Part shown: positions 347 through 60,833 of the stretch, piece by piece
Position numbering within the stretch: the stretch's first letter is position 1
Layout: every line of letters begins with the position of its first letter
Virus record (IMG/VR): IMGVR_UViG_3300035686_000004
Span: 1 to 64,000 of that record
Source: a virus
Length of the DNA stretch: 64,000 bases
Reading direction: 5' to 3' (one strand)
Notes under the pieces: generated by a model
The model's database searches: none
Told to the model about the DNA's origin: nothing
The model's input: only the letters and a program-made list of their open reading frames with translations
Program-made: the position numbers and the translations under genes

Positions 347-360
347 GTCTAATATAAGAC
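347..360. repeat. PAL14 variant GTCTAATATAAGAC (1 mismatch)
   Basis: Lies between the stop of 374..1441 and the start of the 1..268 gene. Confidence 0.7.
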
Positions 361-373
361 TTGAGTCACAACC

Positions 374-1441
374 TTAAAAGCCCACAGACTGGTGGATAAC
401 CGCTCCCTTCTGTTTTTGCTTGGGTAGGTATGCCCTGGCAAGACTATTTAACGCTGAGTCAACAGCTGAGGCGGCATCCGTAAAGACACGGCTTTTAATC
501 GCGCTTTCCGCGCTTGTGTAGCCTCCTCGAAAATGGCTGTAGTACGCAGTTACCGATTGGATAACCCCATAAGCAGTGCCATTGGTGTAATCGTTCAAGG
601 ATAAATCAATCCCCAGATCTTCCATCACATGGGCAGCTTCACCATTGTATATAGACTGCATTGTGCGCACAGAAACAGGTTGCTCAGTCAGTGCCTTTTT
701 CTTGTCTCCAACAAAATCAACAAAATGAGTCAGGGCATCCGCTTTACTAACTTTCACTCGCGCCAATGCCTCTAGCTTTTGTCGTTCAATGGAGATCATT
801 TCCTTATACTGCTGAAGCTGCTTATCCGCCGCGCGATACGCCTCAACACCCTTGCTAGTGTGAGCTAGATTCAGCCCATTTTTAATCCCAGTACGCACCA
901 TTCCATTGGTACATATTTTTCGCACAACTATAATCTTCATCCCCATGCCCGAACCAGGGGCGTGATGATTATAAAAGACAATCCTTGAACTATGGGCTTC
1001 ATCTACATCATCGTTGAACAGCGAAAATCCTAGCTCAGGAATCTCATCTGAAACCAGAAACACACAGCGATCGCCCAGTCGCAAGCTTGATTTTGATCCA
1101 TGCAAATAACCACCCCGCGCAACGGAAGAACCTAGTTCAGCAAGCGATCGCATCGCAGTATTGTAAAATTCTCGGTTACCTAATGGCGTCCAGTTATCAG
1201 AGCAGGGGGCAATGTCAACACCTGTTTTGCTATTAACCAAAATACGGAATTGCTGGCTCATTCGTCGTACTCCGTCAATCTCATAAGCAAGAGGGATTGA
1301 CAAAGGTTCCCAGTCCAAATCTATCGATGCCAATGGATTGGTGGGATCGACTGGCTTGCCAATCGAATTCCAGAAATTGCGCCGATCGCGTGAAACACTG
1401 CTGTCGCGTACCATGCTTACACTTAAATTGAATCTGTACAC
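374..1441 (-). CDS. DUF932 / TIGR03299-like phage-plasmid protein
   Basis: 355-aa ORF. The motif IVVRKICTNGMV matches the R-x-x-C-x-N-G-M core I recall for DUF932. The track start at 1441 is GTG; the ATG at 1414 (MVRDSS) is a plausible true start. Confidence 0.6.
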   Translation of the reverse strand: MYRFNLSVSMVRDSSVSRDRRNFWNSIGKPVDPTNPLASIDLDWEPLSIPLAYEIDGVRRMSQQFRILVNSKTGVDIAPCSDNWTPLGNREFYNTAMRSLAELGSSVARGGYLHGSKSSLRLGDRCVFLVSDEIPELGFSLFNDDVDEAHSSRIVFYNHHAPGSGMGMKIIVVRKICTNGMVRTGIKNGLNLAHTSKGVEAYRAADKQLQQYKEMISIERQKLEALARVKVSKADALTHFVDFVGDKKKALTEQPVSVRTMQSIYNGEAAHVMEDLGIDLSLNDYTNGTAYGVIQSVTAYYSHFRGGYTSAESAIKSRVFTDAASAVDSALNSLARAYLPKQKQKGAVIHQSVGF

Positions 1442-1446
1442 ATATC

Positions 1447-1475
1447 AGTGTAACACCCTAAAACCAAATTAGCCA
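1447..1475 (-). promoter_or_regulatory. early-type promoter-like motif (GGGTGT-TACACT)
   Basis: The minus strand reads TTAGGGTGTTACACT between the palindrome and the 374..1441 gene. The -35 is weak. Confidence 0.35.
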
Positions 1476-1489
1476 GTCTAATATTAGAC
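1476..1489. repeat. PAL14 perfect GTCTAATATTAGAC
   Basis: Core of a 32-bp perfect dyad at 1467..1498, between two minus-strand genes. Confidence 0.95.
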
Positions 1490-1519
1490 TGGCTAATTAT
1501 TCATGAAAAGAGCAGAAGC

Positions 1520-3639: not shown

Positions 3640-3653
3640 GTCTAATATTAGAC
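3640..3653. repeat. PAL14 perfect
   Basis: In the leader of the 1520..3592 gene, downstream of promoter 3670..3699. Confidence 0.95.
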
Positions 3654-4923: not shown

Positions 4924-4937
4924 GTCTAATATTAGAC
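4924..4937. repeat. PAL14 perfect
   Basis: 5 nt upstream of the -35 of the ERF promoter, and 10 nt after the stop of 4948..5313. Confidence 0.95.
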
Positions 4938-5930: not shown

Positions 5931-5960
5931 AACCCCTTGTCTAATATTAGACAAGGGGTT
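5931..5960 (-). terminator. dyad terminator built around a palindrome copy
   Basis: A 13-bp stem with a 4-nt loop. On the minus strand the stem ends in GGGGTT followed by TT. Downstream of 6031..6291. Confidence 0.5.
5939..5952. repeat. PAL14 perfect
   Basis: Core of the 30-bp dyad AACCCCTTGTCTAATATTAGACAAGGGGTT at 5931..5960. Confidence 0.95.
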
Positions 5961-6378: not shown

Positions 6379-6392
6379 ATCCAATATTAGAC
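6379..6392. repeat. PAL14 degenerate ATCCAATATTAGAC (2 mismatches)
   Basis: Upstream of the 6323..6351 promoter, in the same relative position as other copies. Confidence 0.5.
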
Positions 6393-8469: not shown

Positions 8470-8483
8470 GTCCAATATTAGAC
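8470..8483. repeat. PAL14 variant GTCCAATATTAGAC
   Basis: Lies 48 nt after the stop of 7046..8422. Confidence 0.8.
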
Positions 8484-9094: not shown

Positions 9095-9108
9095 GTCTAA
9101 TATTAGAC
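9095..9108. repeat. PAL14 perfect
   Basis: Between terminator 9060..9085 and promoter 9118..9146. Confidence 0.95.
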
Positions 9109-9583: not shown

Positions 9584-9597
9584 GTCCAATATTGGAC
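9584..9597. repeat. PAL14 symmetric variant GTCCAATATTGGAC
   Basis: Both half-sites changed in a compensating way. Between terminator 9544..9571 and promoter 9608..9636. Confidence 0.8.
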
Positions 9598-10649: not shown

Positions 10650-10663
10650 GTCTAATATTAGAC
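10650..10663. repeat. PAL14 perfect
   Basis: Lies 16 nt after terminator 10611..10634. Confidence 0.95.
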
Positions 10664-11689: not shown

Positions 11690-11703
11690 GTCTAATATTA
11701 GAT
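11690..11703. repeat. PAL14 variant GTCTAATATTAGAT
   Basis: 5 nt upstream of the endolysin ATG (minus strand). Confidence 0.8.
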
Positions 11704-11890: not shown

Positions 11891-12658
11891 ATGTTAACAG
11901 TTTTCAAGCAAGATGGCATCGAGCTGGCAATCAATACTCAAACGGGCGAAGCTTTTGCAACCGTTTCTGGCTATGCTCGGATGAGTGGAAAGGATAAATC
12001 AGTGATCTCTCGTCGTTTAGGAACCGTTGCAAAAGAAGGCATAAAAAACGCTGAAATCCAGACAGTGCAAGGATTACGAACCGTTGCATTAATACCAGAA
12101 ACTCTGATCTCTCAGTGGATCGTGAAAGATAACCCTGGGCTGGCAACACAGATGTTAAACGCAGGTTGCCGTCTCTACCTCTACCAGATCGCAGGCTATA
12201 AAATCAAAGTCGAGGATGCAGCGCCTACGGTAACACCAGCATTAACTTCTTGCGATCGCGTTGATAAAGCCGTACAACTCAAAGAATCTTTGGAGTTTTT
12301 TGGTATAGACATCAAGAATCCACGCTTCTTGCAATCTGCCCAAGATTTGGTGTGCGATGTCTTGGGACTTGGACAACAACCTGCTTTATCTCCTGCTGAG
12401 ACTTGGCTAGGTGTTGCAGAAAGAGCCGAGGAGCTTGGTTACCCCATCAGTTTGGTTACTAAACATCGTAGCCAGCTGGGTAAGTGGGTTAAGCAGTACG
12501 ACTTGACCCGTAAGCTAGAGAAGCGACTTTGTAATGGCACTCAACGAGAGATTAATCTGTATCTCCAGTGCCCACAACTAGATGAGGCAATTAAGGAGTT
12601 TCTGGATGCTAAGGTGCTCGCAACTCGCGCTAGATCAATCCTAACGGAGTTAGTCTGA
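11891..12658 (+). CDS. hypothetical protein, antirepressor/DNA-binding-like
   Basis: 255-aa ORF. The N-terminal DGIELAINTQTGEAFATVSGYARMSG is loosely like antirepressor N-domains. It sits between two copies of the endolysin 5' segment. Confidence 0.55.
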   Translation: MLTVFKQDGIELAINTQTGEAFATVSGYARMSGKDKSVISRRLGTVAKEGIKNAEIQTVQGLRTVALIPETLISQWIVKDNPGLATQMLNAGCRLYLYQIAGYKIKVEDAAPTVTPALTSCDRVDKAVQLKESLEFFGIDIKNPRFLQSAQDLVCDVLGLGQQPALSPAETWLGVAERAEELGYPISLVTKHRSQLGKWVKQYDLTRKLEKRLCNGTQREINLYLQCPQLDEAIKEFLDAKVLATRARSILTELV

Positions 12659-12781
12659 TATTCGACTAATGGACGGATAGTAAAGAGCGGATCGCCTTGC
12701 CAATGATCCGCTTTGTTCATTGCTTTCTTACGCGCATGTTCCTGATGTCCTACTTTACCGCCCCCGTCAAGCCTGAAACTA

Positions 12782-12869: not shown

Positions 12870-12883
12870 GTCTAATATTAGAT
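12870..12883. repeat. PAL14 variant GTCTAATATTAGAT
   Basis: 4 nt upstream of the endolysin-fragment ATG. Same variant as at 11690. Confidence 0.8.
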
Positions 12884-15632: not shown

Positions 15633-15646
15633 GTCTAATATTAGAC
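15633..15646. repeat. PAL14 perfect
   Basis: Between terminator 15600..15626 and promoter 15669..15698. Confidence 0.95.
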
Positions 15647-16636: not shown

Positions 16637-16650
16637 GTCTAATATTTGAC
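16637..16650. repeat. PAL14 variant GTCTAATATTTGAC
   Basis: 9 nt after the stop of 16184..16627, before the bidirectional terminator. Confidence 0.75.
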
Positions 16651-17613: not shown

Positions 17614-17865
17614 ATGCCGTCATTACCTCAAAATACAATTGAGGCATTGTTTCAAGAAATACCAGAAGACATGGCACGTCGCTACCCTTACGGCAGATGC
17701 AGGCTATGCAGCAAGGCGATCGCCGTTCCTGGCTTAGATGCCTATAAATGCAGTAATGCCGACTGCATCGCGTATACGCAATGGACGGTACCAAGTCTAA
17801 TATTAGACACTCTCAAGTATCAACCACAGTCTACAACTCGGAAAAAATCACCAAGGAAAAAATAA
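17614..17865 (+). CDS. small Cys-rich (zinc-ribbon-like) protein
   Basis: 83 aa with CRLC...CSNADC. It contains an in-frame palindrome copy (LILD). Its stop overlaps the next start (TAATG). Confidence 0.5.
   Translation: MPSLPQNTIEALFQEIPEDMARRYPYGRCRLCSKAIAVPGLDAYKCSNADCIAYTQWTVPSLILDTLKYQPQSTTRKKSPRKK
17795..17808. repeat. PAL14 perfect, inside coding sequence
   Basis: Within 17614..17865, read as LILD. It lies 57 nt upstream of the 17865 start. Confidence 0.95.
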
Positions 17866-19194: not shown

Positions 19195-19208
19195 GTCTAA
19201 TATTAGAC
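19195..19208. repeat. PAL14 perfect
   Basis: Between the 19186 stop and the 19222 start (followed by GGAG). Confidence 0.95.
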
Positions 19209-21033: not shown

Positions 21034-21047
21034 GTCTAATATTAGAC
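21034..21047. repeat. PAL14 perfect
   Basis: 8 nt upstream of the TTGACA at 21056. Confidence 0.95.
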
Positions 21048-21553: not shown

Positions 21554-22375
21554 ATGCCAAGAGCAAAAGCAACGTTCCAAAAAACACACAAGCTTGATTC
21601 TTCGGATTCCAGTGCTCCGGCAACCGAGGCAAATGCAGCACAATCATTGAATGTATCTAATGAAGTTGCAGGGGGCTTAAGCGTTGTCCCGCGACCCACT
21701 CAGGCTATATCTGCTGAGTTAATAGATGAGCAGCACCCTCAAAAGCAAGATGCCTTTAAGTTGCTGGAGCAAGCATCCAGTCTAGTTGCAAAATTTACGG
21801 CGGTTACCAGCGATCGCGTTGAATTAGTCGAGCAGGAAATGATGGGATTGATGAGCGGTGATCTAACCGTTGATCAATTGCAGGCTAAGTATGGAGCGCT
21901 TGATGCAGTAGAGGCAGATGCAATCAAGCATCAGCTGTCTCGTGTAATGAACGCGATGGGGGTCGAAATTGAGAAAACTCTCGTTGAACGCAAGGGCATC
22001 CAAGTTCAAAAGGAAAAAGCTTTGACTGCATTGTCCGGGCTAAAAGCTGCATTTGAGTTGCAGTCAGAGGCAGAAAAAGTAGCCGACACCAGAGATGAGG
22101 CAGCCTACCAAGGCGATAAGCGACAACAGTCTAATATTACCCGTACTCAGGATATTCGATATCGGAGCGACTGGAACCGATTAGATCAGGAGGATAAAGT
22201 AGATCGCATCAATCACAAGTCCCAGATCAATGACATTGAATCCAGAATTCGCGCTGTTATTCGCAAAGGTGCTCAGTCGCGCCTAGACGTGCAAACGTAT
22301 AAGACGGCGAATCAGCTGACGGTAGCCGATCGCATAATGGCAAAAGTTAAAGCAAGGGGAGAAATCAGTAAATGA
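21554..22375 (+). CDS. hypothetical protein
   Basis: 273-aa ORF. An operator-like 17-mer lies at 21482..21498 upstream. Confidence 0.65.
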   Translation: MPRAKATFQKTHKLDSSDSSAPATEANAAQSLNVSNEVAGGLSVVPRPTQAISAELIDEQHPQKQDAFKLLEQASSLVAKFTAVTSDRVELVEQEMMGLMSGDLTVDQLQAKYGALDAVEADAIKHQLSRVMNAMGVEIEKTLVERKGIQVQKEKALTALSGLKAAFELQSEAEKVADTRDEAAYQGDKRQQSNITRTQDIRYRSDWNRLDQEDKVDRINHKSQINDIESRIRAVIRKGAQSRLDVQTYKTANQLTVADRIMAKVKARGEISK

Positions 22376-22530: not shown

Positions 22531-22544
22531 GTCTAATATTAGAC
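22531..22544. repeat. PAL14 perfect
   Basis: Starts on the base after the TAA of 22372..22530. Confidence 0.95.
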
Positions 22545-24301: not shown

Positions 24302-24814
24302 ATGACTACGCCGACAGAATATGAACATATGCCCGAATATATGAGTCGCGATGACAAGAATGGGGAATTTATCTATCTTGTTGAGGCGAAAGGTTTTCAC
24401 GGCATTCTTTCGTTCGTTTTGAAACGCAGAAAGATTGGCTTGAGTAACGACCCAGAACGCAGACTGAAAGAATTAAATAGCGAACAAGCCCCGTGCCCGA
24501 TAACAGGAATTCGGTACATCCAGGTTAAAGATTCCAAGAGAACAGAAGCCGAGTTACATAAACTATTTGCCTCTAAGCGAAGACATGGGGAATGGTTTGA
24601 TTTCTGGGTCTGGGAAATGCCGGTCGTAAATTGGCATTACGAACGCCGTGCAGCTGGGACAGTTTTAAACAAGCTACCTATCAAGGCGATCGCTTATTCA
24701 TGCCTGGTAACAGCCCTAGTAGTAGGTACTGTTGTAGCTGGTATTAGTTACCGAGCAGTCCAATATAAGACTGATTCCCCCGTAGACGCAGGAGGTGTTA
24801 GACACCTAGAATAG
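24302..24814 (+). CDS. T5orf172 (GIY-YIG-like) domain protein with C-terminal TM
   Basis: 170 aa. FIYLVEA...KIGLSNDPERRLKELN...EAELHKLFASKRRHGEWFDF is the T5orf172/MUG113 pattern. Hydrophobic tail CLVTALVVGTVVAGI. Confidence 0.7.
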   Translation: MTTPTEYEHMPEYMSRDDKNGEFIYLVEAKGFHGILSFVLKRRKIGLSNDPERRLKELNSEQAPCPITGIRYIQVKDSKRTEAELHKLFASKRRHGEWFDFWVWEMPVVNWHYERRAAGTVLNKLPIKAIAYSCLVTALVVGTVVAGISYRAVQYKTDSPVDAGGVRHLE

Positions 24815-26679: not shown

Positions 26680-26693
26680 GTCCAATATTAGAC
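26680..26693. repeat. PAL14 variant GTCCAATATTAGAC
   Basis: Between the helicase stop and the C5-methylase RBS. Confidence 0.8.
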
Positions 26694-28176: not shown

Positions 28177-28190
28177 GTCTAATATTAGAC
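28177..28190. repeat. PAL14 perfect
   Basis: Between the portal-like gene stop (28199) and the PadR start. Confidence 0.95.
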
Positions 28191-34994: not shown

Positions 34995-35008
34995 GTCTAA
35001 TATTGGAC
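34995..35008. repeat. PAL14 variant GTCTAATATTGGAC
   Basis: 17 nt upstream of the J-like gene start, and 4 nt after the stop of 35013..35297. Confidence 0.8.
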
Positions 35009-37097: not shown

Positions 37098-37111
37098 GTC
37101 TAATATTAGAC
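37098..37111. repeat. PAL14 perfect
   Basis: 9 nt upstream of the ATG at 37121. Confidence 0.95.
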
Positions 37112-38895: not shown

Positions 38896-38909
38896 GTCTA
38901 ATATTAGAC
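38896..38909. repeat. PAL14 perfect
   Basis: 8 nt upstream of the ATG at 38918. Confidence 0.95.
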
Positions 38910-40534: not shown

Positions 40535-42303
40535 TGAGTTTAACCGCAACTAGAACAGGCAACCCAGCCAACACAATTTTCTTGCAAGATGTATCTTCCA
40601 GTTTTGCTGCAAATACTAGGGGGTATTCGACCCTACAGCAGTTAGTCGGCAATGGCTATATTGAGTTTGGTTTTAATCAAAACACGGCAGACGCATTAAG
40701 CGCAGCTGCTGGGTTTACCTATGCCGTCTATCCTCATGCCGTAAAGAATGCAATGTCTGCATTGCATTTGATCGCCTATGGATTTTGCGTAAGAGCACAT
40801 CAGGATACCAACCGTATCTTTGTAAAACTGCCTGCAAATAATGCATTTGTCGATACAACGGTTGATTACACCCCAAGTATCAGGATGCGAATTGAGCGTG
40901 CAGGCGACACCATTAATTTCTATACGATTAGTGGTTCAACGGCAACGCTAAGGCACTCAGCTATTAGTACGACTCCACTACCAACTGTTGCCGATTTCAT
41001 CTTGCTGTCAGGTCGCAACGGCGCGAGAATTACTAATGTGTTGATTTCTGGCGTCACACAAGCCTCTCCTGCATTAGACTTAGCCAAAAATGTCTATATT
41101 CCTGTTCAGGGATACCTAAATTTCAGCAATATTCAGCCACGTCTCGCTGTCGTTATGGCAAACGCAGAGGATTTTACTTGGCATTTTCCAGACGGAACAA
41201 CATCTAAGGATACCAACCCCAGTAAAACTCTTGATTTACGAGATTACACCCGATTAATCAGGCTAGAAGTGCCTGACGGGGTAACAGCAATTCGTGAGTT
41301 AATTTTGCCAATTCTTACACGAACCCCACAGCGTTATACTTCATCGGATTTTTCTCAAATTACAAATTTGAGAAAATTAACGTTCGTTACGGGGGCAATC
41401 TACACCCGTGATGGTAATGGGCAAATTGATGAGCGTCGCCAAATACTACTAACATCTCAATTGCGTTTACCTGTATCAATTCAAAGTCTCAGCTTTGAGG
41501 CATTACAAGAAGAGGTTGCCGCAGGTGGTGATGGGGGATTTGATATGGCACCTCTCCTGTTGCCTACTGATTTTAATTTGTCGGGTTTAACAAACCTAAC
41601 AAATCTTCGCCTAGGATTTGCAGATGACCCACAATCGCTTTATCAAGCAAACTTCAAGGCGATCGGAGGGTTTCCAAATCTTGCTGGCTGTATCAATTTA
41701 GAAAATGTATTGATTACGGCTTGGGGTGATTTGATTTTTTACCCCGAGTATGCTGCCTTCTTGAATTCGTTTAGCGGTAATCGTGTAGCACCATTTAGCT
41801 ATTATGCGAGTTTAGCTAATGCCACAAAGGTGACGATTACTCACGGAATTGGCAATGGTGACTTCGATCCAGAATTTACTACTTCTGTGATCGTTAATAT
41901 GGCAAAAGCCGTTGATACACGCACGGATGCGACGCCATTTACACTTGACTTTACGCGAGTTAATGGTGCTCGTGAAACAGTAAGAGGTACCGTACTATCA
42001 TTAGCCGCTAATGCCTCAGCTGGCGCTAATTCAATTCAAGTCACTGCGGCAACTGGGCTTAATGTGGGCGATCGCTTACTACTACAAGACGGGGCAACCA
42101 ATAGTCTAGGTACGAATTTGGTTATTGCATCAATCGCTGGCACCGCAAGCCCTTTTACTGTAACATTTCAAGCAGGACAAACTTTATCAAATAATTACAC
42201 TACTGCGACAGGGCGAGTTTTTAATCTTGAATCAGGTATTGGCTCTACTCAGAAAATGAGATTACAAGGGCATGTAGTCTTAGTAGAACCTGCTTCGATT
42301 TGA
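40534..42303 (+). CDS. putative tail fibre / receptor-binding protein
   Basis: 589-aa ORF. Its start overlaps the previous stop, it is rich in T/N/G/S, and a palindrome begins at the last base of its stop codon. Confidence 0.65.
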   Translation: MSLTATRTGNPANTIFLQDVSSSFAANTRGYSTLQQLVGNGYIEFGFNQNTADALSAAAGFTYAVYPHAVKNAMSALHLIAYGFCVRAHQDTNRIFVKLPANNAFVDTTVDYTPSIRMRIERAGDTINFYTISGSTATLRHSAISTTPLPTVADFILLSGRNGARITNVLISGVTQASPALDLAKNVYIPVQGYLNFSNIQPRLAVVMANAEDFTWHFPDGTTSKDTNPSKTLDLRDYTRLIRLEVPDGVTAIRELILPILTRTPQRYTSSDFSQITNLRKLTFVTGAIYTRDGNGQIDERRQILLTSQLRLPVSIQSLSFEALQEEVAAGGDGGFDMAPLLLPTDFNLSGLTNLTNLRLGFADDPQSLYQANFKAIGGFPNLAGCINLENVLITAWGDLIFYPEYAAFLNSFSGNRVAPFSYYASLANATKVTITHGIGNGDFDPEFTTSVIVNMAKAVDTRTDATPFTLDFTRVNGARETVRGTVLSLAANASAGANSIQVTAATGLNVGDRLLLQDGATNSLGTNLVIASIAGTASPFTVTFQAGQTLSNNYTTATGRVFNLESGIGSTQKMRLQGHVVLVEPASI

Positions 42304-42316
42304 TCTAATATTAGAC
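42303..42316. repeat. PAL14 variant ATCTAATATTAGAC
   Basis: Begins at the last base of the TGA of 40534..42303, and lies 7 nt upstream of the GTG at 42324. Confidence 0.8.
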
Positions 42317-42710: not shown

Positions 42711-43176
42711 GGGTAAAGGCAATAAAGCATTAATCTTGCTGATTATTGCTGCCATTATTGCCGTTACCCTAGGGTTAGCCCCAGTAACGGCAGATAGCCA
42801 GAGTTTGATTTTGGTGATACTGGGCGCAATCGGAGGTGTACCTGCATTATTTGAAATAGGCGATCGCATCGTTAAAAACTTAGAGCGCTTTGATCAGCAA
42901 TTGCTACGCCTAGAAGAAACAGAAGCCCTCAAGCAAATGGTTGCCGATGCTACACGGCAATTAGAGGAGGAACGTGAGCGTGTTGAGATATTGAGGAAAG
43001 CGATCGCCCTAGAGGTAGAAACGCTTAGGGGGGTAACCTATAATGCTACTTCGGACGCCCAAGCCGCACGAAATGACGCTCAAGCTGCGAGGGAAATTGC
43101 ATTAAGAGCAGAGTCTAATTTAGTTCTTCAATTGGTAGAACGCCTTGTTAAGCTCGAAGATAAAGCCCAAGTCTAA
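42670..43176 (+). CDS. membrane-anchored coiled-coil protein
   Basis: 168 aa (alternative ATG at 42694). TM segment ALILLIIAAIIAVTLGLAPV, then coiled coil. The stop TAA is part of the palindrome at 43171. Confidence 0.55.
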   Translation: MIKPKFQKMKLSFRGKGNKALILLIIAAIIAVTLGLAPVTADSQSLILVILGAIGGVPALFEIGDRIVKNLERFDQQLLRLEETEALKQMVADATRQLEEERERVEILRKAIALEVETLRGVTYNATSDAQAARNDAQAAREIALRAESNLVLQLVERLVKLEDKAQV

Positions 43177-43184
43177 TATTAGAC
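43171..43184. repeat. PAL14 perfect
   Basis: Provides the TAA stop of 42670..43176. It lies between this gene and the convergent kinase gene. Confidence 0.95.
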
Positions 43185-44872: not shown

Positions 44873-45268
44873 GTGCCAATGCTACGAATTCTAGTCATTG
44901 AAGATCAGCAAGAATGCAGAGAAAACTTAATTGAAATCTTGGAACTAGAAGGACACAGCGCATTAGGAGTGAGCAACGGAAATGAGGCGATCGGTATCCT
45001 TGGTAATCAGCATTTTGATCTGATTTTTTGCGATATTGTTCTTTATGAAATATCCGGATGGGAAATATTAGCACATGTCCGTACACTGAGGCGATCACGA
45101 AAGGTTTATCTCCCTTTTGCTTATGTAACAGCACAAGCGGGAACGGTCAATCAACAACTAGCGATGCAATTAGGCGCAGACTATTTTATCACAAAACCTT
45201 ATCGGATCAAAGAAATACAAAAGGCGATCGGTCATTTGTTTATACTGAAAAATCTAATATTAGACTAA
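44873..45268 (+). CDS. single-domain response regulator (CheY-like receiver)
   Basis: ILVIEDQQE, DLIFCDIVL (phospho-acceptor Asp), YVTAQ and FITKPY match the receiver landmarks. The likely ATG is at 44879. The C-terminal LILD is encoded by a palindrome copy. Confidence 0.85.
   Translation: MPMLRILVIEDQQECRENLIEILELEGHSALGVSNGNEAIGILGNQHFDLIFCDIVLYEISGWEILAHVRTLRRSRKVYLPFAYVTAQAGTVNQQLAMQLGADYFITKPYRIKEIQKAIGHLFILKNLILD
45252..45265. repeat. PAL14 variant ATCTAATATTAGAC
   Basis: Encodes the last residues (LILD) of the response regulator. Confidence 0.8.
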
Positions 45269-46335: not shown

Positions 46336-46349
46336 GTCTAATATTAGAC
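46336..46349. repeat. PAL14 perfect
   Basis: 6 nt beyond the tape measure stop codon. Confidence 0.95.
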
Positions 46350-49300: not shown

Positions 49301-52300
49301 TATCGGGATGTCTCGATAAATTCGAGAGTTTACTGCCTCCGTAAAGCATATCGTATGTTGCACCCTCAGCCCGCCCAATAGTATCTAGTAATGCTCGAAT
49401 CTCCGGATCATTCAGCAACTGAGCATAGCGCTGTCCTTTTGCTGTCAGTCCCCTAGGAATAGCTCGATTAGTGGGTGCAGTGCCGTTACTTCTGAGTGAG
49501 TTTGCGATCGCAGCCCCAATTGCATTAGCACCCCCGCTGATAGTCCCCTGATCTTCCGTTCGACTGCTAGCACGCTTTGTCGTAGTTGATACCGCTGTTG
49601 GTCGCATTTGCCCTTTGAGTTGTTGCTCATAGGGCGCTAACCCTCCAATTACCCTAAGCCTAGTTCCCTCTTCGCGAATTAATCCTAGTTTTTCGAGATA
49701 TTTAACGGGATCGGTTGTCCCAGGGAATCCAAGACCCCCAACCCCATTAGTATGCTTAGTCCGAATTTCGTAATGTATAACTCCTGTATATGATTCTCCT
49801 CTTCCTACTGCTTGACCGGGTTGTACGACATCACCTTTTTTAACCAATAAGCGTGACGCTTCCGCTATGCGTTCAACAACATTTAACGCTTTGTTGTAAA
49901 TATCTACATAATGCCCATAACCTTTCCAGCTTCCGTCATACCCTATGTTCGTGACAACACCACCCAAGAAACTTTGTGCATCCTGTCTTCCTGTGATATC
50001 AAAATCTTGCCCAGCGTGACGCCTACGCCCACCACTTCTAGGCGCACCGTAGTCCTGACCCGGTATCAAGTTTGTACGGTAATTAATAGTGACGCGCCCA
50101 TCGCCTCTGACTATATTTCCACTACCCTTTTTTCCGCCTGAGTCTAATATTAGACTGGTACTACTTGTCGCTGATCGTTGCTTTGGCTTTTGTGGCGTTG
50201 CTGCACTCCCCCGATCAGCGCTTAGTAACCCCTCTTGCACATATTGCTCAAAGTTGGCAGAGTCACCTTTGATTGACGCGATCGCTTCTTTACTTTTTTG
50301 CTTAATCGCATCAATTGATTTACCAAATGAACCGACTAGCGTTTCACCTAAACTTGTAACTGAACTGCCAAGTTTATTAAATTCATTTCCTAGACTAGCT
50401 ACTTGCTTTTTGGCTGCGTCTACTAAATTGGGATACTTGGATAGTTTCAAGCCAATTTCAGTCACAATACCAAGGATGGGATTAAATGCCTTGAGCAAGT
50501 TAACCCCTACAATAGTTGCAAACTCTTTGGTACTGGCTTTGATTTTCCCCGTTAAATCATTGATGCCAAATTGCTTTTCAATGATTTGGATATGTGCCGC
50601 GATCGCCTGATTAAGGGCTTCATTCATTCGGGCTAATTCTGCACGAATTGATTGAATGCCCGGTATTGATTGAAGTTGCTTTTCGATAATTTGCAAATAT
50701 GACGCAATTGTTTGACCTAAATCCTGATTCATTCGTGATAACTCTGCACGAATAGATTGAATCCCAGGGATAGATTCAAACTGCTTTTTTATTATTTCAA
50801 TCTGTGCGGCAATGCTTTCTCTTAGTACTTCGTTGATACGCTTAAACTCAGTATTTATGTTCCTGATAGCTGGAATCGATTGGTCAACATAGGTTACAAA
50901 AGATTGCCAACTAGCCTGTAGTGAGGCGATCGCGTCATTCCACGCAGTACGAGGATTAGTGAAAATATTGAGTAGGAAATTTTTGCTCTGTTCAACAACA
51001 TTCAAGAATGCTTGCCATCCAGTCTTTAACGCATCTTCAAATTGCTTACTCGTGCCAATCAAGCCAGCAAATAACGCAATTAAACCGGGAATTCCACCAG
51101 CAATTGATGCACTAAATGAGCCAAAACTTAATTGCCCGTTTTCAAAAGGCTTGGAAATAGCCGCAGATAAACCAGGAAAGCGCTGCTTAACGAACTCTAC
51201 AAACTCATTCCATTTTGCTTTTAGAAAGTCAATGGCTTGATTCCAGGGATTTGGATCGGGGTGCGGCAACTGTGTCTGTTGCAGAGATGTATTTACATTA
51301 GCGATCGCGCCGTTAAGATTTTTGGTTGTCACTCCTGCGCTTTCCAGCCCCGCCTTGAGTTGCTTGACCGTTGCATCGGCATTCACGGCATCAATATCAA
51401 GTCTAATGGGAATCCTTGAGATAGGCGTTGTAGATATTGAATCAGGGACTAAATTACTAGGCAATCCATCTGGCAATTGACGGGTTAGTTCAGTGCCTTG
51501 GCGCAACAAATCAGATGCTTGAATCTGGTTTTGATAGAGTTGTTGTCGCTTTTGTATTTCCGCCTGTTGTGCCGACTGGATGCTGTCCAGTCCTGATATG
51601 AGTGAATCAACAAATCCTGAGAAGAAATTAGACTGAAATCCTTGCAACTTAGATATCAAGCGATTCTTTTCAGCCGCGATCGCTAACTGTGATTCACTTG
51701 CCTCAATAGTCAATTGCAGTTCTTGAGTCTGCCTGCTAATCCCCCGTAAATACTCATCTACGGACTTGCCCAGTTCGTATAACTGCTGTGCTGCATCTGC
51801 CTGTGATTGACTTAGTTGTACCTCTAATTGACCTAGCTGTCCTTCTATTTCCCTCATCTTGGTCAACCGTTCATACAGCAGCTTTTCTTCAGCCCCCGTC
51901 GCTAAACCCGATAGTCTATTTAATTCTTCTGTCCCTATCGTTTCAGGGTTAATGCCTCGCTGAAACATTAGTTGCACATTGTCGGGCGTATTTACATACT
52001 GACTGAGTTTACCAAGGGCTTGAGTTGCGTTGTTAACCTGTGCTTCCAGTGATCGCTGTTGCAATAATTGCTGACCATACTGTGCTTGACCAGGAGTTAA
52101 TCCATTGCGCTGTGCTATTGATAACCCTGTTTGATAACGCGCTGTATTGCCTGTGATCGCTGTATTAGCATCAGCATAAGCCGTTACAGTTTTTGTTAAT
52201 TGGTCACGAATTAACTTAACTAAACTAATTTGCCCTGATGTAAAGTTTTCGAGTTCTTTTTGTGCAGCTTCCAGCGCGGGAATTGATTGTCTAATATTAG

Positions 52301-55300
52301 ACTTTAAGACGTCTACCTGTTTCCGAGAAATCTGATTTTTTGCCCATAATTCATCTATTGATTCAATCTCTGCATTGGCGGCCTCTAGCAAAGAATCCAC
52401 CAGTTCCTTTTGATTACGGACTCTAACGTCAATTTGCTCTTTTTCTTTGCTGTAAATGTCTCGTTGATAGCTTGGCAAAAACGGATCAGCGGTTAACGCA
52501 CTAAGTTGTCGCGATCGCGCTGCATCGTCAGGTTTGACCTGAGAATTATTGAGGGTAACATTAACTCGATTATTGAATTCTTGAATATCTTTTAAGTTAG
52601 AGCGCGATCGAATTATTGATTGTAGGTTATTGTAATTACCCAAAATTGATGCGATCGGATTAAATGTATCAAGTGCTTTTTGCTGGGCATTGCGGTTCAG
52701 GAATTTATCTAAATCATTGAAGGTCTTGGGTATACCTTTGCCAACCCCGTTGGCGGCATCCTCTAAACGCTTGAATTGCTTGATGTTTTTCTCGATTGCT
52801 GAATCTAAATTTTGAGAGCCTTGGAATGATTGCCAAGTATCTGATACTACCTTGAGGGCTACTGCCAAGGCAGCTGTTTGTAGGGAGAACTTAGCGATCG
52901 CGGCAGCTGCAACATTAAATCCACCAGCAAGCGCAGGCAATGCAACTTGGGCAATCTTAAGAATCAATCCAAGGACAACTGGAAGCTGCTGTAACGCTAA
53001 TGCGCCAAGAATTAAAGCGATTTTGTCAGCGTTGGCAATGACTGCTTCTAGTGCGACATTCAATCCTTTCAGCCCAGTATTAACTAGAGGCATTACCGCA
53101 CTCCCTAGCATCCGCTCTAACTGAATTCTTGTATTGCTTAACCTATTCTCTAGTGCCTGCGTTGAGTTTGTAGCTTCATCTACTCCAGACGCAAACTCAA
53201 CGCGCAGTTGACGCGCAAACTTCAAGACAGACTCAGCACCAGAATACTGACCCGTTACCAGGTTTTTCCTAAACGTTTCTGGTGATTCACCATATGCTCT
53301 AGCAAAAATATTCGCCGCGCCCGGAAATGCCTCACCGATTTGTTGATTGACTTCCTCACTAGATAATACAGGTTTACCAGCTGCCTGAACTACACCATAA
53401 ACAAATCGACGTCGCCTCTCTGGCGTTAACTGCCTGACCAGTGCCGCCTCATTAAGTGCCGTAAAAATTTCACGGGTATTGCCTTGTAGCTTTGTCCCTT
53501 GCAATGCTGAGGATAAGTCATTAAAGCTTTCTGTCGCATCTTGTAATGGTGCGTTGAGTCGTTCTACTTCGCTTCTGATATATGCAATGTTTTTTGCGCC
53601 CTCACTTTCAGATCCGGCACTATACCTAATTGAGCGCTCTAAGCTATCGAAAGCTTTTGCTGTTTGGTAAGCTTGATTTGCAATGTTGCCTAGAACTGGA
53701 ATGAGTTGCAATGCAAGTAATGCAACGCCTACTCCTCGTATTCCACTAGACAGCGATCGCAGCAAGGGATTAGCTTTTATTAATTCATTGATCGCTTCTC
53801 TAACTTGCATTACCTTATCAATTGCCCCTTGACTAGGCTTAGTAATCAATTCTCTTGCCCAGTCAAGCCCCTGTTGTCCCTTCTGAATGCCTTGGTTAAA
53901 TCCCTCTACGACAAACTCGCCAATGCGTTGAAACACTCGCGATGGACTTTGTATATCTAGTGTGTCTTTCGCCTGGTTAATTGCTGATTTAGCTAATTCT
54001 TCAGCAGCGGCTTCAACTTGCTGAATTGATTGACTCATTCCCTCGCTTAAGCCTTGTCCAATATTAGACCCAATTCCTTGAGATTGGATGAGGGATTCAG
54101 CAGTGGATGAGGCAACCGTTATCCTAATCCTGGCTGACTTAGCGATCGCTTTCAGCTCTTGCGAAGCATTGCCGCCTAGCGACTTCATCAAGTCATCAAT
54201 TGCTTTCTTTGCTTCCTTAGCCCCTGTCAACACTTCATTGGCTAATTTCTGAGACTCGATTGGATCAAGTGTTGAAAGTTTTCTGGCTGACTTGATTTTT
54301 TCAGTAAATTGTAATCCTAAACTCTTGACACTAGCGCCAGGATCTATTGCTTGAGTTAACGGTTTATTAATTTGCTTGATAGATTCTTCTGTACGTTTTT
54401 GAATTTTAACTACTTGTGATTTTAGGTTGGCTAATTGATTGCCTAGCTCAGAACTGAGACGTTCATTGACTGGGAGAGAGGCGATTGCCTGTTCTATTTC
54501 TTGAGATAATCCAGGTAGTAAGTCTTTGACTACATCGGCGTAGGCAGCTGAAATGTTAGGTACTCCCCTGGATAAATCACTAGCCGTTAAAGAGCTTTGT
54601 GCTAACGCCTCAGTCCGTTGCTTTATTTGATCAATCAGGGATGCATCAGGGCGCGATATTTCTTGTATTAACGGTTGACCAATTGCCCCAATAACTTGAT
54701 TGATTAATATATCTGATTTCTTAATTACTTCCTTGACGTTGCGCTGCAAAGCTTCATCTGTCGCGTTTTGGGCTGTTGATTTTAAGGAAGTTTGATTAAC
54801 AGGTAAAATAGCCGTTAATTCAGTTTGTGGGGACTGAATATTAGCAGGTAAATTAACAGGAGCAAAAGTCTTTTCAGTTGTCTTAATTAGCTTGTCTAAC
54901 TGCTCTAATGGCTCTCCGTTAATGAATGAATTAATAGATTGCTTGAGCGTCTCTAGATAATCTAAATAGCTATCGACGTCTTGTTGAGTGACATTAGTTA
55001 ACTGTGCAGCGTCAACCTTGATTTGCTTGATTAACTCATCAATATCTCTACGGGAGTCTATTAATTCACGAGTCGATGCTGACTGATTTTGCAATAAAGA
55101 AATTGCTCCCCTGGGAACTTCAGGGTATCTGTACAAATTGGTTGTGTTTTGCTTTCTAAGTGCCTCAGCCTCAGCGATCGCTCGTGCCTCTTGCGCTTGC
55201 TTTTGCGCTCTCGCCGCACGCTCTCGATCTATGTTTGCGTTGAGAGTAGGCGTCAGTTGCTGTTGCAATGCCTGAACAGGCTCATAATATTGAGCGCCTA

Positions 55301-57608: not shown

Positions 57609-57622
57609 GTCTAATATTAGAC
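57609..57622. repeat. PAL14 perfect
   Basis: Core of the 22-bp dyad at 57605..57626, 21 nt upstream of the tape measure ATG. Confidence 0.95.
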
Positions 57623-57636: not shown

Positions 57637-57650
57637 GTCTAATATTAGAC
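57637..57650. repeat. PAL14 perfect (second tandem copy)
   Basis: 28 nt from the previous copy, in the same 72-bp intergenic gap. Confidence 0.95.
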
Positions 57651-59044: not shown

Positions 59045-59612
59045 CGCGTGCTCCTACTCCAAATAACGTGTAATCCCCTCTAATTATCTTAGGCAATGAC
59101 AATTCTGCGGGGGGCGGGAATGCGTCAATCATAATCCCGATTGACGTCTGGTCAGTATTTGAGAAAGTGAACGTCGCATCCTGAGTTGACAGCCCAGCAT
59201 ATGGAGAATACCACCATAAATCAGGATGCCGTGTCGGGCCGTCACAACTTGCCGCTTTTACCAAGATTGGAAATTTATCAACTGGACATCCGGCGCGATC
59301 ATAGAAACCTAACGCTTTGCGCGATTCATCTTCCGGATCAACCCGTAGTTGTGCACCATGATAAACCAAATCAATGATATCAAGGCTATCTCCACCCCAA
59401 ACCCGCGCAAGGCTGAAAGAAAACTGCCAGCGATACCCAGACACAATCTTGTCCGCAGGGGCGGTAGACGATTGCGTCATCTGCTCAGTAAACTCTTCAG
59501 TATCCGTAATAGTTCCCGCGCCCATTTGGTCATCCGGAGTAAGAACGATTTCCCGTTCCGTGCCCCAATGCAAATAAATATACGCGGGCCCGGTAAATAA
59601 ATTTCTTGCCAT
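59037..59612 (-). CDS. major tail (tube) protein (by position)
   Basis: 191-aa ORF preceding the two chaperone-like genes and the tape measure gene. Overlaps the downstream start. Confidence 0.5.
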   Translation of the reverse strand: MARNLFTGPAYIYLHWGTEREIVLTPDDQMGAGTITDTEEFTEQMTQSSTAPADKIVSGYRWQFSFSLARVWGGDSLDIIDLVYHGAQLRVDPEDESRKALGFYDRAGCPVDKFPILVKAASCDGPTRHPDLWWYSPYAGLSTQDATFTFSNTDQTSIGIMIDAFPPPAELSLPKIIRGDYTLFGVGARDD

Positions 59613-59618
59613 TTATTT

Positions 59619-60068
59619 TTATTCCTCTCGATAACAGCTAATACACGTTTGCAAGAAAAACTCAAATACGCACGCACTTACGTAAAGAGCTACCTGATCA
59701 ACAAAACGGACAGGCAACCATTGGCGACGTTGTACATGATCAAGTCGTTGTCCATTCATCCGCAGGCAGCAACATTTCAACTTAACAATTGAATCCACTT
59801 CTTCCATTAATTGCCCCGCGATCGCCTCGTTTTGATGGTAAGTTGCAAATTGCAACGCGGGGGAGGACGCAACTTGTGTAGTCAATTGACGTTGAATTGT
59901 TCGATTATCGATCTCAGTAATAACAACCCGTCCGCCCTTCAGAAGGATGTCATCAAGTGTTCGTGGGTGAGTATTTGTTAGTTCGATAAACTCATCAAGA
60001 TGCGATCGCAGGCAACCCCACAAAACCCGTTTCAATTCAACTGTTGATGGAGGCGTTCTAATCATCAC
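59619..60068 (-). CDS. tail terminator / head-tail joining protein (by position)
   Basis: 149-aa ORF whose start overlaps the upstream stop. Confidence 0.45.
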   Translation of the reverse strand: MMIRTPPSTVELKRVLWGCLRSHLDEFIELTNTHPRTLDDILLKGGRVVITEIDNRTIQRQLTTQVASSPALQFATYHQNEAIAGQLMEEVDSIVKLKCCCLRMNGQRLDHVQRRQWLPVRFVDQVALYVSACVFEFFLQTCISCYREE

Positions 60069-60454
60069 ACATTGCCCTGCTTGCCAACCTTACGCGCCGC
60101 CCTAATGCGCTGCAATTGAATGATTAACTCTCTGCCAATAGAAGGCAGATTTGGGCGAATATATGGGTTTCTGATTTCTACCCAATACGCATAATTCACG
60201 TCTCTCTCAATACCCTGCTCCCTTAATTCACCCGGTAAGCTAACACCACCAGCAACAAAGTCACACTGGACAATATTGCCTGATAAAACAACAGTTTCGG
60301 CTCTCGTTGAGTTGTATAACCGCTTAGTATCTACAGGGGTCAATTCTTGAATTAAAGGGACGGTATTAGCGCAGGCTTTCTGGTAATCTTGCGCTAGTGA
60401 ATTAAGGAATTTGTCTAGCGATCGCCCATCAATAATCACTCCCTGTTTAACCAT
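60065..60454 (-). CDS. HK97 gp10-like head-tail joining protein
   Basis: 129 aa. QELTPVDTKRLYNSTRAE resembles the gp10-family PvDTGrLrnS motif. Confidence 0.6.
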   Translation of the reverse strand: MVKQGVIIDGRSLDKFLNSLAQDYQKACANTVPLIQELTPVDTKRLYNSTRAETVVLSGNIVQCDFVAGGVSLPGELREQGIERDVNYAYWVEIRNPYIRPNLPSIGRELIIQLQRIRAARKVGKQGNV

Positions 60455-60803
60455 AGGTTCTTACCTCCAACACATAAGCTTGCACCAAATTAGCCGACAC
60501 GTCAGTCCCCAATGCAGTAAATTCAACAGTGCCACTGAAAGTCGTAGAAGGAAGCGCCCCAAACACCCTAGTCTCACCAGGGGCGATCGCCTCAACAGGA
60601 TCTTCTATCTCATAGTTGCTTGACGCTTTTGCGGGGGTTACAAAGTTGATATGGGCATTCCCTTCTGGTGAAGCTGGATCAAGATGATCAACCACAAGCA
60701 CTGTAGAGGCACTATTGGCAAATGTGTATCGTTCTCCTAGCGCAAGTGTTGTACGCTTTACTTCCGTGCCTTTCAAGGTTGAAATATTGATCGGTAATTG
60801 CAT
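60447..60803 (-). CDS. hypothetical virion protein
   Basis: 118-aa beta-rich ORF with AAGGAG upstream, preceded by a palindrome copy. Confidence 0.55.
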   Translation of the reverse strand: MQLPINISTLKGTEVKRTTLALGERYTFANSASTVLVVDHLDPASPEGNAHINFVTPAKASSNYEIEDPVEAIAPGETRVFGALPSTTFSGTVEFTALGTDVSANLVQAYVLEVRTYG

Positions 60804-60819
60804 TGTTACTCCTTAATTT

Positions 60820-60833
60820 GTCTAATATTAGAC
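60820..60833. repeat. PAL14 perfect
   Basis: Between the 60840 stop and the 60803 start, followed on the minus strand by AAGGAG. Confidence 0.95.

Follow-up and report, generated by a model that had tools for sequence, protein, structure and literature searches.

What function might a single, perfectly symmetric 14-bp sequence serve when it recurs at one gene boundary after another in the genome of a virus? The question is posed by a 64,000-nt stretch of IMG/VR virus record IMGVR_UViG_3300035686_000004 (positions 1 to 64,000 of that record, hereafter the window), the DNA of a tailed phage in which copies of the palindrome GTCTAATATTAGAC were originally predicted, from the nucleotide sequence alone, to mark almost every intergenic gap. 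As detailed below, the palindrome network is real, under selection and phage-specific, and we infer its mechanism: the palindrome is probably read as duplex DNA by a dimeric protein, most probably one encoded by the phage itself. The best explanation at hand, to which we assign somewhat less than an even chance, is a network of dimer-read DNA sites that acts on transcription in the manner of roadblocks or insulators.

The palindrome family

The window contains 21 exact copies of GTCTAATATTAGAC, 11 copies with one mismatch and six with two, and every start coordinate listed in the original prediction for the exact and one-mismatch copies was reproduced. Shuffles that preserve dinucleotide composition yield an expectation of 0.00 exact copies and of 0.22 copies at two or fewer mismatches. 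When three mismatches are allowed, only three extra sites appear against 2.9 expected in total, a chance level which indicates that the palindrome family is sharply bounded. The total at two or fewer mismatches is 38 sites, or one per 1.7 kb, each named here by its start position; the copy at 22129 is doubtful because it is changed in a close relative of the phage (see below), and the network therefore comprises approximately 37 sites.

Each palindrome is built of 6-bp arms around a 2-bp center that is likewise invariant, and carries TAA and TAG in one frame, on either strand. Changes are tolerated at positions 1/14 (G to A, or C to T) and 4/11 (T to C, or A to G). Among the copies with two mismatches, both half-sites are altered in GTCCAATATTGGAC at 9584 and in ATCTAATATTAGAT at 31703; four further copies of this class are found at 6379, 12653, 22129 and 24758. 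Outside of the 14 bp, the flanks of the sites are unrelated to one another. Since only these 14 bp are common to the sites, gene conversion cannot maintain them, and a trans-acting factor that reads the sequence is implied.

Purifying selection on the palindrome

IMG/VR contig 3300036939_000039 (67.6 kb, hereafter the relative) is approximately 90% identical to the window. Across the 28 alignable sites (392 positions) seven differences are observed, six of them at a single lost copy, 57609, whereas the flanking sequences differ at 10.6% of positions. Variant copies stay the same variants in the relative, and three sites that lie within the tape-measure gene are identical there, with flanks that differ by 7-20%. 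The exact palindrome sequence is under purifying selection, in keeping with the selection that had been suggested for the motif.

Lineage specificity and a second, unrelated group of phages

The window is rich in the HIP1 octamer GCGATCGC, which occurs 144 times in 64 kb where approximately one copy would be expected, mostly in coding sequence (for example at 213, 8461, 8489 and 63977), and which makes a cyanobacterial host likely. The two HIP1 copies around palindrome 8470 can pair with one another, at -20 kcal/mol.

The palindrome network, by contrast, is lineage-specific and not a host-wide repeat of the HIP1 type. Four HIP1-rich contigs whose portal proteins are 70-76% identical to that of the window, and which share its structural module, contain no copy of the motif at two or fewer mismatches in up to 21 kb, nor any substitute repeated palindrome other than HIP1; this comparison with phage relatives, already proposed alongside the original prediction, shows the motif to be specific to the lineage. 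A scan of 185,579 species genomes returned at least 120 matches, all 120 of those listed being single-copy and a few of them lying in cyanobacteria. In a scan of IMG/VR, only two multi-copy lineages are present among the matches listed, namely the relative and a large uncultured phage group, present in 233 IMG/VR stretches and referred to here as family B.

Family B shares no gene with the window phage as judged by tblastn, blastp and phmmer over approximately 800 kb. Its GC content is 48-61%, five loci checked for HIP1 have one copy or none, and its TerL protein shares approximately 40% identity with the TerL proteins of HTVC023P-type pelagiphages and Planktothrix phage Pag-Yong1. Either GTCTAATATTAGAC or ATCTAATATTAGAT is present in a few members, and members whose TerL proteins are 83-95% identical have other palindromes, each particular to its genome but likewise built of 6-bp arms around a 2-bp center (TTCTAA-SS-TTAGAA, TTATAA-CC-TTATAA, TCTTAA-SS-TTAAGA, TTTTAA-NN-TTAAAA and others). 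Both arms covary among these close relatives, so that dyad symmetry is itself the selected feature; this covariation provides the best evidence both for such selection and for a phage-encoded, fast-evolving specificity factor. The earlier claim of selection on dyad symmetry thus stands on the strength of this unrelated group; the two compensated variants of the window with which it had been supported are present, but are weak evidence alone, because 9584 and 31703 both combine the changes tolerated at positions 1/14 and 4/11.

In family B the element is confined to an early module of approximately 10 kb between packaging and replication genes (DNA polymerase A, SNF2 helicase), where a palindrome precedes almost every gene at a fixed distance from GGAGAA-ATG. 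The non-palindromic center (CC in the sense of the gene) is oriented with transcription in most copies. Palindromes observed in family B loci L126-L282 (for example L152, L135, L194, L132 and L258) include TTCTAASSTTAGAA, TTATAACCTTATAA, TCTTAASSTTAAGA and TTTTAANNTTAAAA, among others. The motif types of the group comprise GTCTAA, ATCTAA, TTCTAA, TTATAA, TCTTAA and TTTTAA, and its full contigs measure 60-67 kb (for example IMGVR_UViG_3300037493_000871, 3300031787_000100, 3300043444_000196 and 3300032233_000543).

Placement of the sites along genes

Placement was assessed against a crude gene model based on open reading frames (ORFs), with gaps of at least 10 bp counted. By this model 26 of the 38 sites are intergenic and five lie over gene ends (31/38 together), with the remaining seven fully inside ORFs. 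A site is held by 26 of 44 gaps (59%), and thus most gaps are indeed marked, though "almost every" was an overstatement and does not account for the seven sites inside ORFs. Occupancy amounts to seven of eight convergent junctions, 16 of 29 tandem gaps and three of seven divergent gaps, and a strong intrinsic terminator (27744-27773) lies in the sole convergent junction without a site (27685-27779). At least 17 sites overlap a stop codon or sit 0-13 nt past one, and twelve lie 4-21 nt 5' of start codons, often directly before a Shine-Dalgarno (SD) sequence. The placements described originally, before the -35 box (4924, 9095, 15633), within a leader (3640) and 5-21 nt before starts, all hold. 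Five of the start-proximal sites carry one mismatch, which in all five informative cases falls in the gene-distal half and leaves the gene-proximal arm intact.

Deep intragenic sites are confined to the 11.2-kb tape-measure gene (50142, 52289 and 54056), where they fall in two different reading frames and correspond to no repeat in the protein. The spacing between neighboring sites in the window never exceeds 3806 bp (P = 0.002 against uniform placement), because the tape-measure gene holds these three internal sites. The individual sites are as follows.

347..360: one mismatch, GTCTAATATAAGAC; 13 nt past the stop of the DUF932 gene (374-1441, minus strand); identical in the relative.
1476..1489: exact; tip of an intrinsic terminator with a 14-bp stem (1467-1498, minus strand) after the ParB-like/Dam gene; center at approximately -42.5 from the early promoter of 374-1441.
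3640..3653: exact; in the leader (approximately +10 to +23) of promoter 3699-3670 (minus strand), 5' of the ParB-like/Dam gene.
4924..4937: exact; 10 nt past the stop of 4948-5313 (minus strand) and 5 nt 5' of the -35 box of the ERF-gene promoter 4918-4890 (minus strand).
5939..5952: exact; tip of terminator hairpin 5931-5960, which on the minus strand runs into TTTT.
6379..6392: two mismatches, ATCCAATATTAGAC; center at approximately -69.5 from promoter 6351-6323 (minus strand).
8470..8483: one mismatch, GTCCAATATTAGAC; convergent junction with a HIP1 copy on either side; also the left junction of a 2.2-kb segment replaced with respect to the relative.
9095..9108: exact; between intrinsic terminator 9060-9076 and promoter 9118-9146 (plus strand), center at approximately -51.5.
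9584..9597: GTCCAATATTGGAC, both half-sites altered; at approximately -52.5, 5' of the promoter of the PAPS-reductase gene.
10650..10663: exact; convergent junction, 19 nt past terminator 10610-10630; right edge of the replaced segment.
11690..11703: one mismatch, in the gene-distal end; the M15 peptidase gene (10884-11684, minus strand) starts 5 nt downstream.
12653..12666: two mismatches, GTCTGATATTCGAC; overlaps the stop of 11891-12658; same variant in the relative.
12870..12883: one mismatch; center at approximately -63.5 relative to the 12967-13338 promoter; in comparison with the relative, its edge is exactly where a 510-bp gene cassette starts.
15633..15646: exact; between terminator 15599-15621 and promoter 15669-15698 (plus strand), center at approximately -65.5.
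16637..16650: one mismatch; 9 nt past the stop of 16184-16627, at a convergent junction and beside a separate terminator-like hairpin.
17795..17808: exact; at the 5' end of ORF 17781-18635, probably 5' of the real start near 17860.
19195..19208: exact; 8 nt past the stop of 18641-19186 and 13 nt before ATG 19222, directly before the SD sequence GGAG.
21034..21047: exact; center at approximately -47.5 relative to the 21113-21433 promoter; the relative has a cassette inserted here, with a copy of the palindrome-plus-promoter unit on either side.
22129..22142: doubtful match with two mismatches; inside ORF 21554-22375; unconserved in the relative.
22531..22544: exact; directly past the stop of 22372-22530 and followed by a 9-bp hairpin.
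24758..24771: two mismatches, GTCCAATATAAGAC; within the 3'-terminal part of the T5orf172 gene; center at approximately -46.5 from the promoter of 24841-25230; same variant in the relative.
26680..26693: one mismatch; 3 nt past the stop of the helicase gene and 16 nt before the start of the C5-methylase gene.
28177..28190: exact; 8 nt past the stop of the portal gene, 5' of the PadR cassette.
29642..29655: one mismatch; sole occupant of the short gap that separates the divergent portal and 29663-30112 genes.
31703..31716: ATCTAATATTAGAT; stem extended by 7 bp of flank; two convergent genes end in its TAA codons.
34995..35008: one mismatch; 4 nt past the stop of 35013-35297 (minus strand) and 17 nt before the tail gene 31711-34977 (minus strand).
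37098..37111: exact; 18 nt past a stop; structural gene 37121-38848 begins (ATG) 9 nt further on.
38896..38909: exact; structural gene 38918-40534 begins (ATG) 8 nt further on.
42303..42316: one mismatch; its first base is the last base of the preceding TGA stop; 7 nt before GTG 42324.
43171..43184: exact; convergent junction lacking a canonical terminator; contains the stop of 42670-43176.
45252..45265: one mismatch; 3' end of the receiver-domain gene 44873-45268, convergent junction; a 562-bp insertion in the relative starts 5 nt past the site.
46336..46349: exact; convergent junction, 6 nt past the stop of the tape-measure gene; a 462-bp cassette abuts its edge.
50142..50155: exact; inside the tape-measure gene, coding for SLILDS at aa 2478; kept in the relative, where the flanks differ by 20%.
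52289..52302: exact; inside the tape-measure gene, coding for KSNIRQ at aa 1762, in a reading frame unlike that of 50142.
54056..54069: one mismatch; inside the tape-measure gene at aa 1173; same variant in the relative.
57609..57622: exact; 21 nt 5' of the tape-measure start; stem extended by 4 bp; the sole aligned site lost in the relative.
57637..57650: exact; 9 nt past the stop of 57660-58406 (minus strand), 28 bp from the preceding copy.
60820..60833: exact; 6 nt past the stop of 60840-61277 (minus strand) and 16 nt before the start of 60447-60803 (minus strand), directly 5' of the SD sequence AAGGAG.

Early promoters and terminators

A second, gene-oriented motif, GGGTGTTAGA, is present in 14 copies at one mismatch or fewer against 2.2 expected, all of them in the left 25 kb. 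In strong promoters of the sigma-70 type (TTGACA-17-TAGATT, TGT upstream), this motif makes up the end of the spacer together with the -10 box; its positions include the following.

1449-1458, 3672-3681, 4892-4901 and 6325-6334: minus strand.
9135-9144, 9625-9634, 11806-11815, 12922-12931, 15687-15696, 20212-20221, 21070-21079 and 24793-24802: plus strand.

Approximately 11 palindromes of the early region are paired with promoters of this TTGACA-17-TAGATT type. The usual order is an intrinsic terminator, 10-20 nt, the palindrome, 0-22 nt and the -35 box, as at 9060-9146 and 15599-15698; at 10610-10663 a terminator and a palindrome stand in this order with no promoter detected downstream. Measured from the predicted transcription start, seven promoters have the center of the palindrome at approximately -42.5 to -52.5, three have it at -63.5 to -69.5 and one at -127.5, while that of 3640 lies at +16.5. 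The palindromes at 1476 and 5939 form the tips of true terminators on the coding strand, and are the only two of the 38 sites that qualify, flanks included, as rho-independent terminators. In the late region, matches to sigma-70-like promoters show no enrichment (36 against 42.6 expected). A search of metagenomes for the composite palindrome-plus-promoter pattern returned two small contigs only, and the one checked (L284) holds a single copy.

Several segments of the early region are paralogous. Three stretches of approximately 50 nt (9030-9085, 9520-9575 and 10585-10640; …CACAGTATATCCTTAxCCCCTGCxxxxCAGGGGxTTTT…) each contain a HIP1 or near-HIP1 sequence and an intrinsic terminator, with a palindrome 12-20 nt further on. 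Additionally, the minus-strand starts at 11640-11703 and 12820-12883 read ATCTAATATTAGAC-aaatc-ATGAGCACATTAGAC and ATCTAATATTAGAC-aacc-ATGGGCACGCTAGAC, respectively, the latter belonging to a short ORF overlooked by simple ORF calling.

Probable recognition as duplex DNA and a proposed mode of action

Three characteristics of the sites favor recognition of duplex DNA by a symmetric dimer. Firstly, the hairpin that the bare palindrome can form is weak, folding at -2.9 kcal/mol. Secondly, the variants display no wobble bias: where the sense strand is clear, most of them produce A.C or other mismatches, with pairing broken at 347, 12653, 16637, 24758, 26680, 34995, 42303 and 45252, and only 54056 and perhaps 6379 are compatible with wobble pairing. 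Thirdly, sites 9095, 10650 and 15633 lie past an intrinsic terminator, and 9095 and 15633 lie 5' of the next promoter as well, in spacers that are probably untranscribed. A search of the whole window against Rfam 15 returned no match at the gathering score of any family. The four flank-extended dyads noted originally (1476, 5939, 31703 and 57609) are real, with folds of -12.6 to -22.5 kcal/mol, and show that the motif can serve as the basis of a hairpin where termination is to be hard-wired.

A step beyond dimer recognition is the insulating action, and with it a role in timing, that we propose for the network. A bound dimer would block run-through of RNA polymerase from one unit into the next, whichever the orientation. 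In the early region the dimer would lie past the preceding terminator and over the UP-element region (approximately -42 to -70) of the next sigma-70-type promoter, and could tune that promoter too. In the late region bound sites would stand directly 5' of the ribosome-binding sites of the main structural genes. The other positions are convergent gene ends without an intrinsic terminator and points every 2-4 kb within the 11-kb tape-measure gene. One protein might in this way gate late-gene expression until removed or titrated, and the network would be the equivalent of the Cluster A mycobacteriophage stoperators, though palindromic and read by a dimer. Among the four roles suggested originally, such a stoperator-like operator network fits best, while a hairpin-type promoter, an RNA hairpin and a recombination site are each weakened by the evidence given here. 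In particular, the preference for convergent junctions, the complementarity with terminators and the sites in the tape-measure gene with the even spacing that they produce fit a boundary element better than a promoter.

A number of observations weigh against this explanation. Early sites lie upstream, not downstream, of promoters, and a roadblock in that position cannot silence them; moreover, the distances between palindrome and promoter vary and show no helical phasing. The gene-distal location of the mismatch in all five start-proximal one-mismatch sites and the orientation of the family B element, together with its fixed distance from the Shine-Dalgarno sequence, both hint at a directional function resembling that of a promoter or leader. 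With no integrase, partition system, recognizable repressor or prophage relatives found (see below), a silencing role of the lysogeny type is unsupported. Lastly, the search for a binder among the phage proteins yielded no identified protein: the only clear dimeric winged-helix protein, PadR, is itself excluded, the assignment of a ribbon-helix-helix (RHH) fold to the products of 24841-25230 and 16744-17037 is an unsupported guess, and in family B no protein tracks the motif type within ±10 kb of TerL or of the DUF2201 gene.

Alternative explanations

The explanation that best survives beside an insulator network, though we consider it unlikely, is that the palindrome forms the core of a bidirectional, phage-specific middle or late promoter, at which host RNA polymerase redirected by a phage factor would initiate transcripts just downstream, with very short leaders. 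The start-proximal late sites with an intact gene-proximal arm and the oriented elements of family B keep such a promoter or leader function alive, the latter being found at their fixed distance from GGAGAA-ATG in the early module only. Also consistent with it are the twelve sites close to start codons, the lack of enrichment of sigma-70-like promoters in the late region, and the core TAATAT, which fits a TAnnnT -10 box on either strand. It is difficult to reconcile, however, with the finding that occupancy is most consistent at convergent junctions and poorest in divergent gaps, a distribution that also weakens the hairpin-type promoter suggested originally. Furthermore, no start codon lies downstream of the three deep tape-measure sites, the early sites lie upstream of sigma-70 promoters that are already complete and do so at variable distances, and perfect two-fold symmetry at each copy would be needless for a promoter that acts in one direction. 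No phage RNA polymerase or sigma factor was found among the proteins of the window, and starts only 4-5 nt from the motif would leave transcripts nearly leaderless.

It is improbable that the palindrome acts as a small RNA hairpin for an RNA-binding protein or nuclease, with a role in intercistronic processing, protection of mRNA ends or translational control. The long stems of the four flank-extended dyads, which are far above chance, would suit such a role, as would the sites beside ribosome-binding sites or directly past stop codons, the identical RNA sequence that a perfect palindrome yields from both strands, and the orientation of the CC center of family B with transcription. The weakness of the bare hairpin, the broken pairing, the sites past terminators and the empty Rfam search argue otherwise, and cleavage within the tape-measure coding sequence would do harm; the RNA hairpin or processing site of the original prediction is disfavored on these grounds.

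A low probability is likewise assigned to the sites being recombination points, or parts of mobile regulatory cassettes, through which co-infecting relatives swap genes, as proposed for the promoter-early stem-loops (PeSLs) of T4-type phages. In comparison with the relative, the window displays approximately 13 indels or replacements, five of which have a junction 0-6 nt from a palindrome: junctions coincide exactly with sites at 12883, 46336 and 21033, and lie within 6 nt at 8489, 10668 and 45270. Inserted genes bring along palindrome-plus-promoter units of their own, an ERF-family recombinase is encoded at 3738-4742, and the early order of terminator, palindrome and strong sigma-70 promoter resembles that of PeSLs (PMC2839356). 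Nevertheless, 14 bp is very short for homologous exchange, most sites lie at stable positions in conserved syntenic regions, and neither the tape-measure sites and even spacing nor the purifying selection site by site is explained. Junctions near sites are to be expected if the sites mark the edges of functional units, and their enrichment is modest (approximately 6 of 20 boundaries against three expected under a null limited to intergenic sequence). Recombination at module boundaries, as suggested originally, would therefore be at best a by-product. Clean single-gene indels, present in the window only, are found at 12884-13393, 30112-30333, 30854-31309 and 45874-46335; those at 30112-30333 and 30854-31309 adjoin no palindrome.

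Quite improbable, in turn, is that the sites load or target the ParB-like/Dam fusion protein of the phage (1520-3592, minus strand; 690 aa) in the manner of parS, KorB OB or Noc NBS palindromes, with a clamp that spreads from the sites or a methylase that acts beside them; this represents one choice of binder within the dimer-read network. Dispersed palindromes of 13-16 bp are bound by ParB-family proteins at the KorB OB sites of RK2 and the Noc NBS sites, and both KorB and Noc require a ParB-type CTPase plus a helix-turn-helix (HTH) domain. The fusion protein, which has a long, low-complexity, lysine-rich N-terminus, contains a ParB-like match at aa 164-288 (E = 7.5e-7) with an arginine patch, GNRRIKAARR, and then a Dam-like adenine methylase domain at aa 440-593. 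It is conserved in the relative, palindromes lie in the leader (3640) and the terminator (1476) of its own gene, and a protein with a ParB-like domain is found, too, in the Cluster O phages that carry the analogous dyad repeats (PMC4351075). Set against this, the ParB-like domain is followed by no HTH domain that could be detected, fusions of the ParB-like/methylase type occur commonly in phages that have no network of this kind, GATC is absent from the motif, and no homologue was seen in the sampled parts of family B, which shares the motif.

Finally, the proposition that the 14-mer is a HIP1-like host repeat, in the phage only through amelioration, is largely refuted: the abundance of HIP1 demonstrates that host-type repeats can accumulate in a phage, but HIP1 is spread through coding sequence and the 14-mer stands at boundaries, HIP1-rich relatives lack the motif altogether, the listed matches in species genomes are all single-copy, and only two phage lineages are multi-copy among the IMG/VR matches listed.

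Candidate binding proteins

The PadR protein (27780-28094, minus strand), proposed as a binder from the outset, is excluded in that its gene is replaced in the relative (L116 11540-12876), which keeps the sites, by unrelated genes of 112 and 290 aa, each preceded by its own palindrome copy and promoter; PadR also has no close homologue in IMG/VR. The product of 35013-35297, likewise put forward, has a weak ankyrin-repeat likeness and no HTH match. PDB sequence searches with the RHH candidates 24841-25230 and 16744-17037 were empty, and their single-sequence AlphaFold models reached predicted local distance difference test (pLDDT) scores of 54 and 62, with no match found by Foldseek.

In family B, an RHH/Mor-like regulator is encoded inside the densest cluster of sites. 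Both this regulator and a 179-aa protein are fast-evolving, but their phylogeny conflicts with motif type and they were rejected as binders. A second comparison with motif type, centered on the DUF2201 gene, yielded nothing beyond a 46-aa ORF that is probably not a true gene and a paralogous family of small acidic proteins.

Relation to known systems

The literature searched contains no report of the motif string GTCTAATATTAGAC, and nothing relevant emerged from a keyword search on conserved intergenic palindromes of cyanophages. The original statement that no equivalent is described in cyanophages holds to that extent, but a close equivalent exists in the Cluster O mycobacteriophages, in which a 17-bp dyad repeat, TGTTCGGNNNCCGAACA, is present in 34 copies in Corndog (Cresawn et al., 2015, PMC4351075). 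Coding regions contain one third of the copies, the authors infer that a dimeric protein binds the repeat, and the function has remained unexplained since 2015 (PMC4351075). This repeat is the closest precedent for the network described here, as an analogue without homology. In both cases more than 30 copies of a short inverted repeat with invariant arms are distributed over a siphovirus genome of approximately 70 kb, mostly in intergenic positions with a sizeable coding fraction, and in both the phage encodes a ParB-like domain protein and displays no integrase and no evidence of lysogeny. The Cluster O repeat is absent from the host genomes examined in that work; for the present motif, the 120 listed genome matches are single-copy. 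The two nonetheless differ in build (7-bp arms and a variable 3-bp center in Cluster O; 6-bp arms and an invariant 2-bp center here), in sequence, in host phylum and in phage lineage. Moreover, the Cluster O repeats are reported to be unlinked to promoters, start codons and indels (PMC4351075), unlike the sites of the window, with their regular order relative to terminators, promoters, stops and starts, their occupation of convergent junctions and their proximity to five of approximately 13 indels.

The stoperators of Cluster A mycobacteriophages (L5, Bxb1; PMC6550527, PMC9283540) differ between related phages and track their repressors (PMC6550527). Similarly to the sites described here, they comprise dozens of short sites placed genome-wide in short intergenic spaces and over stop or start codons, with a proposed block to transcription elongation. 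The change of their motif between related phages may find a parallel in the absence of the present motif from the 70% relatives and in the genome-specific variants of family B, where no covarying protein was found. In contrast to the perfect palindrome, however, stoperators are 13 bp long, asymmetric, bound by a monomeric repressor and oriented with transcription (PMC6550527); the phages that carry them are temperate and have a known immunity repressor, whereas no repressor or lysogeny module was found here; and it is only in the window that sites also stand 5' of early promoters.

The PeSLs of T4-type phages, like the early palindromes, form composites with a strong sigma-70-like promoter at variable position (PMC2839356, PMC4122927), flank small genes of unknown function and sit at indel junctions between close relatives. 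Unlike the fixed, weak, A/T-rich 14-mer, PeSLs are stable, G/C-rich and sequence-variable stem-loops that are self-sufficient terminators. The palindrome of the window, in addition, occurs without a promoter across the conserved late region, where many of the sites lie, and inside a gene.

Further parallels are provided by the conserved inverted repeats (CIRs) bound by the repressor of phiC31, a temperate phage. CIRs, KorB OB sites and Noc NBS sites are all conserved inverted repeats of 13-17 bp, many of them intergenic, that are read by one dimeric binder affecting transcription; the phiC31, KorB and Noc systems, unlike the network of the window, have identified binders. To our knowledge, none of the NtcA, MetJ and McbR boxes matches the palindrome. 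A likeness to the integron attC core (RYYYAAC/GTTRRRY) was dropped, as the central GTT is unconserved and the site is far too short.

If one protein does read approximately 40 palindromes genome-wide, the result would be a compact and portable means of gene insulation, and the stoperator idea would extend beyond temperate actinophages to a symmetric site in a cyanophage without signs of lysogeny. Beside the Cluster O repeats, the network of the window represents a second and better-ordered case, and the diversification of the motif between close relatives in family B makes the evolution of specificity testable. The motif can also be used as a marker of gene and operon boundaries in poorly annotated genomes of this kind. 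It may even be, though we regard this as unlikely, that genome-specific boundary palindromes are a general, unrecognized regulatory architecture of apparently lytic tailed phages, one that would join the cyanophage network, the family B palindromes and the Cluster O repeats. One fast-evolving dimeric protein, possibly a ParB-type clamp, and some 10-40 dyad sites would then serve as a genome-wide insulator and timer, an immunity-like "dialect" without lysogeny.

The phage genome

No integrase, partition system or recognizable immunity repressor was found in the window, where many small ORFs are unannotated; an integrase or partition system is likewise absent from the approximately 3.3 kb beyond the window as read from the relative. 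A search of genome contigs with the portal protein found no prophage relatives, and the same search extended to metagenome contigs found no further relatives. Megablast of 20 kb of the window against cultured phages produced no match, and the best portal hit by tblastn (23.5% identity) is to Cylindrospermopsis phages.

The structural genes include those for the portal (28199-29647), a J-like tail protein (31711-34977) and two paralogous virion proteins. The tape-measure protein (46356-57587, minus strand) is a single 3743-aa ORF, uninterrupted in the relative as well, with a lysozyme-like domain (approximately aa 2705-2922) and an M23 peptidase domain (aa 2523-2612). An N4-like hairpin promoter served by a giant virion RNA polymerase was considered and rejected, the 3743-aa protein being this tape measure. 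Beyond the ERF-family recombinase, the DUF932 protein, the ParB-like/Dam fusion and PadR, the phage encodes a C5 methylase (26710-27684), a helicase, and Bro-N and T5orf172 proteins. An unusual pair for a phage is formed by a HATPase_c histidine-kinase-type protein (43192-44562, minus strand) and a CheY-like receiver (44873-45268, plus strand), and the small ORF 44618-44860 displays a weak HisKA match.

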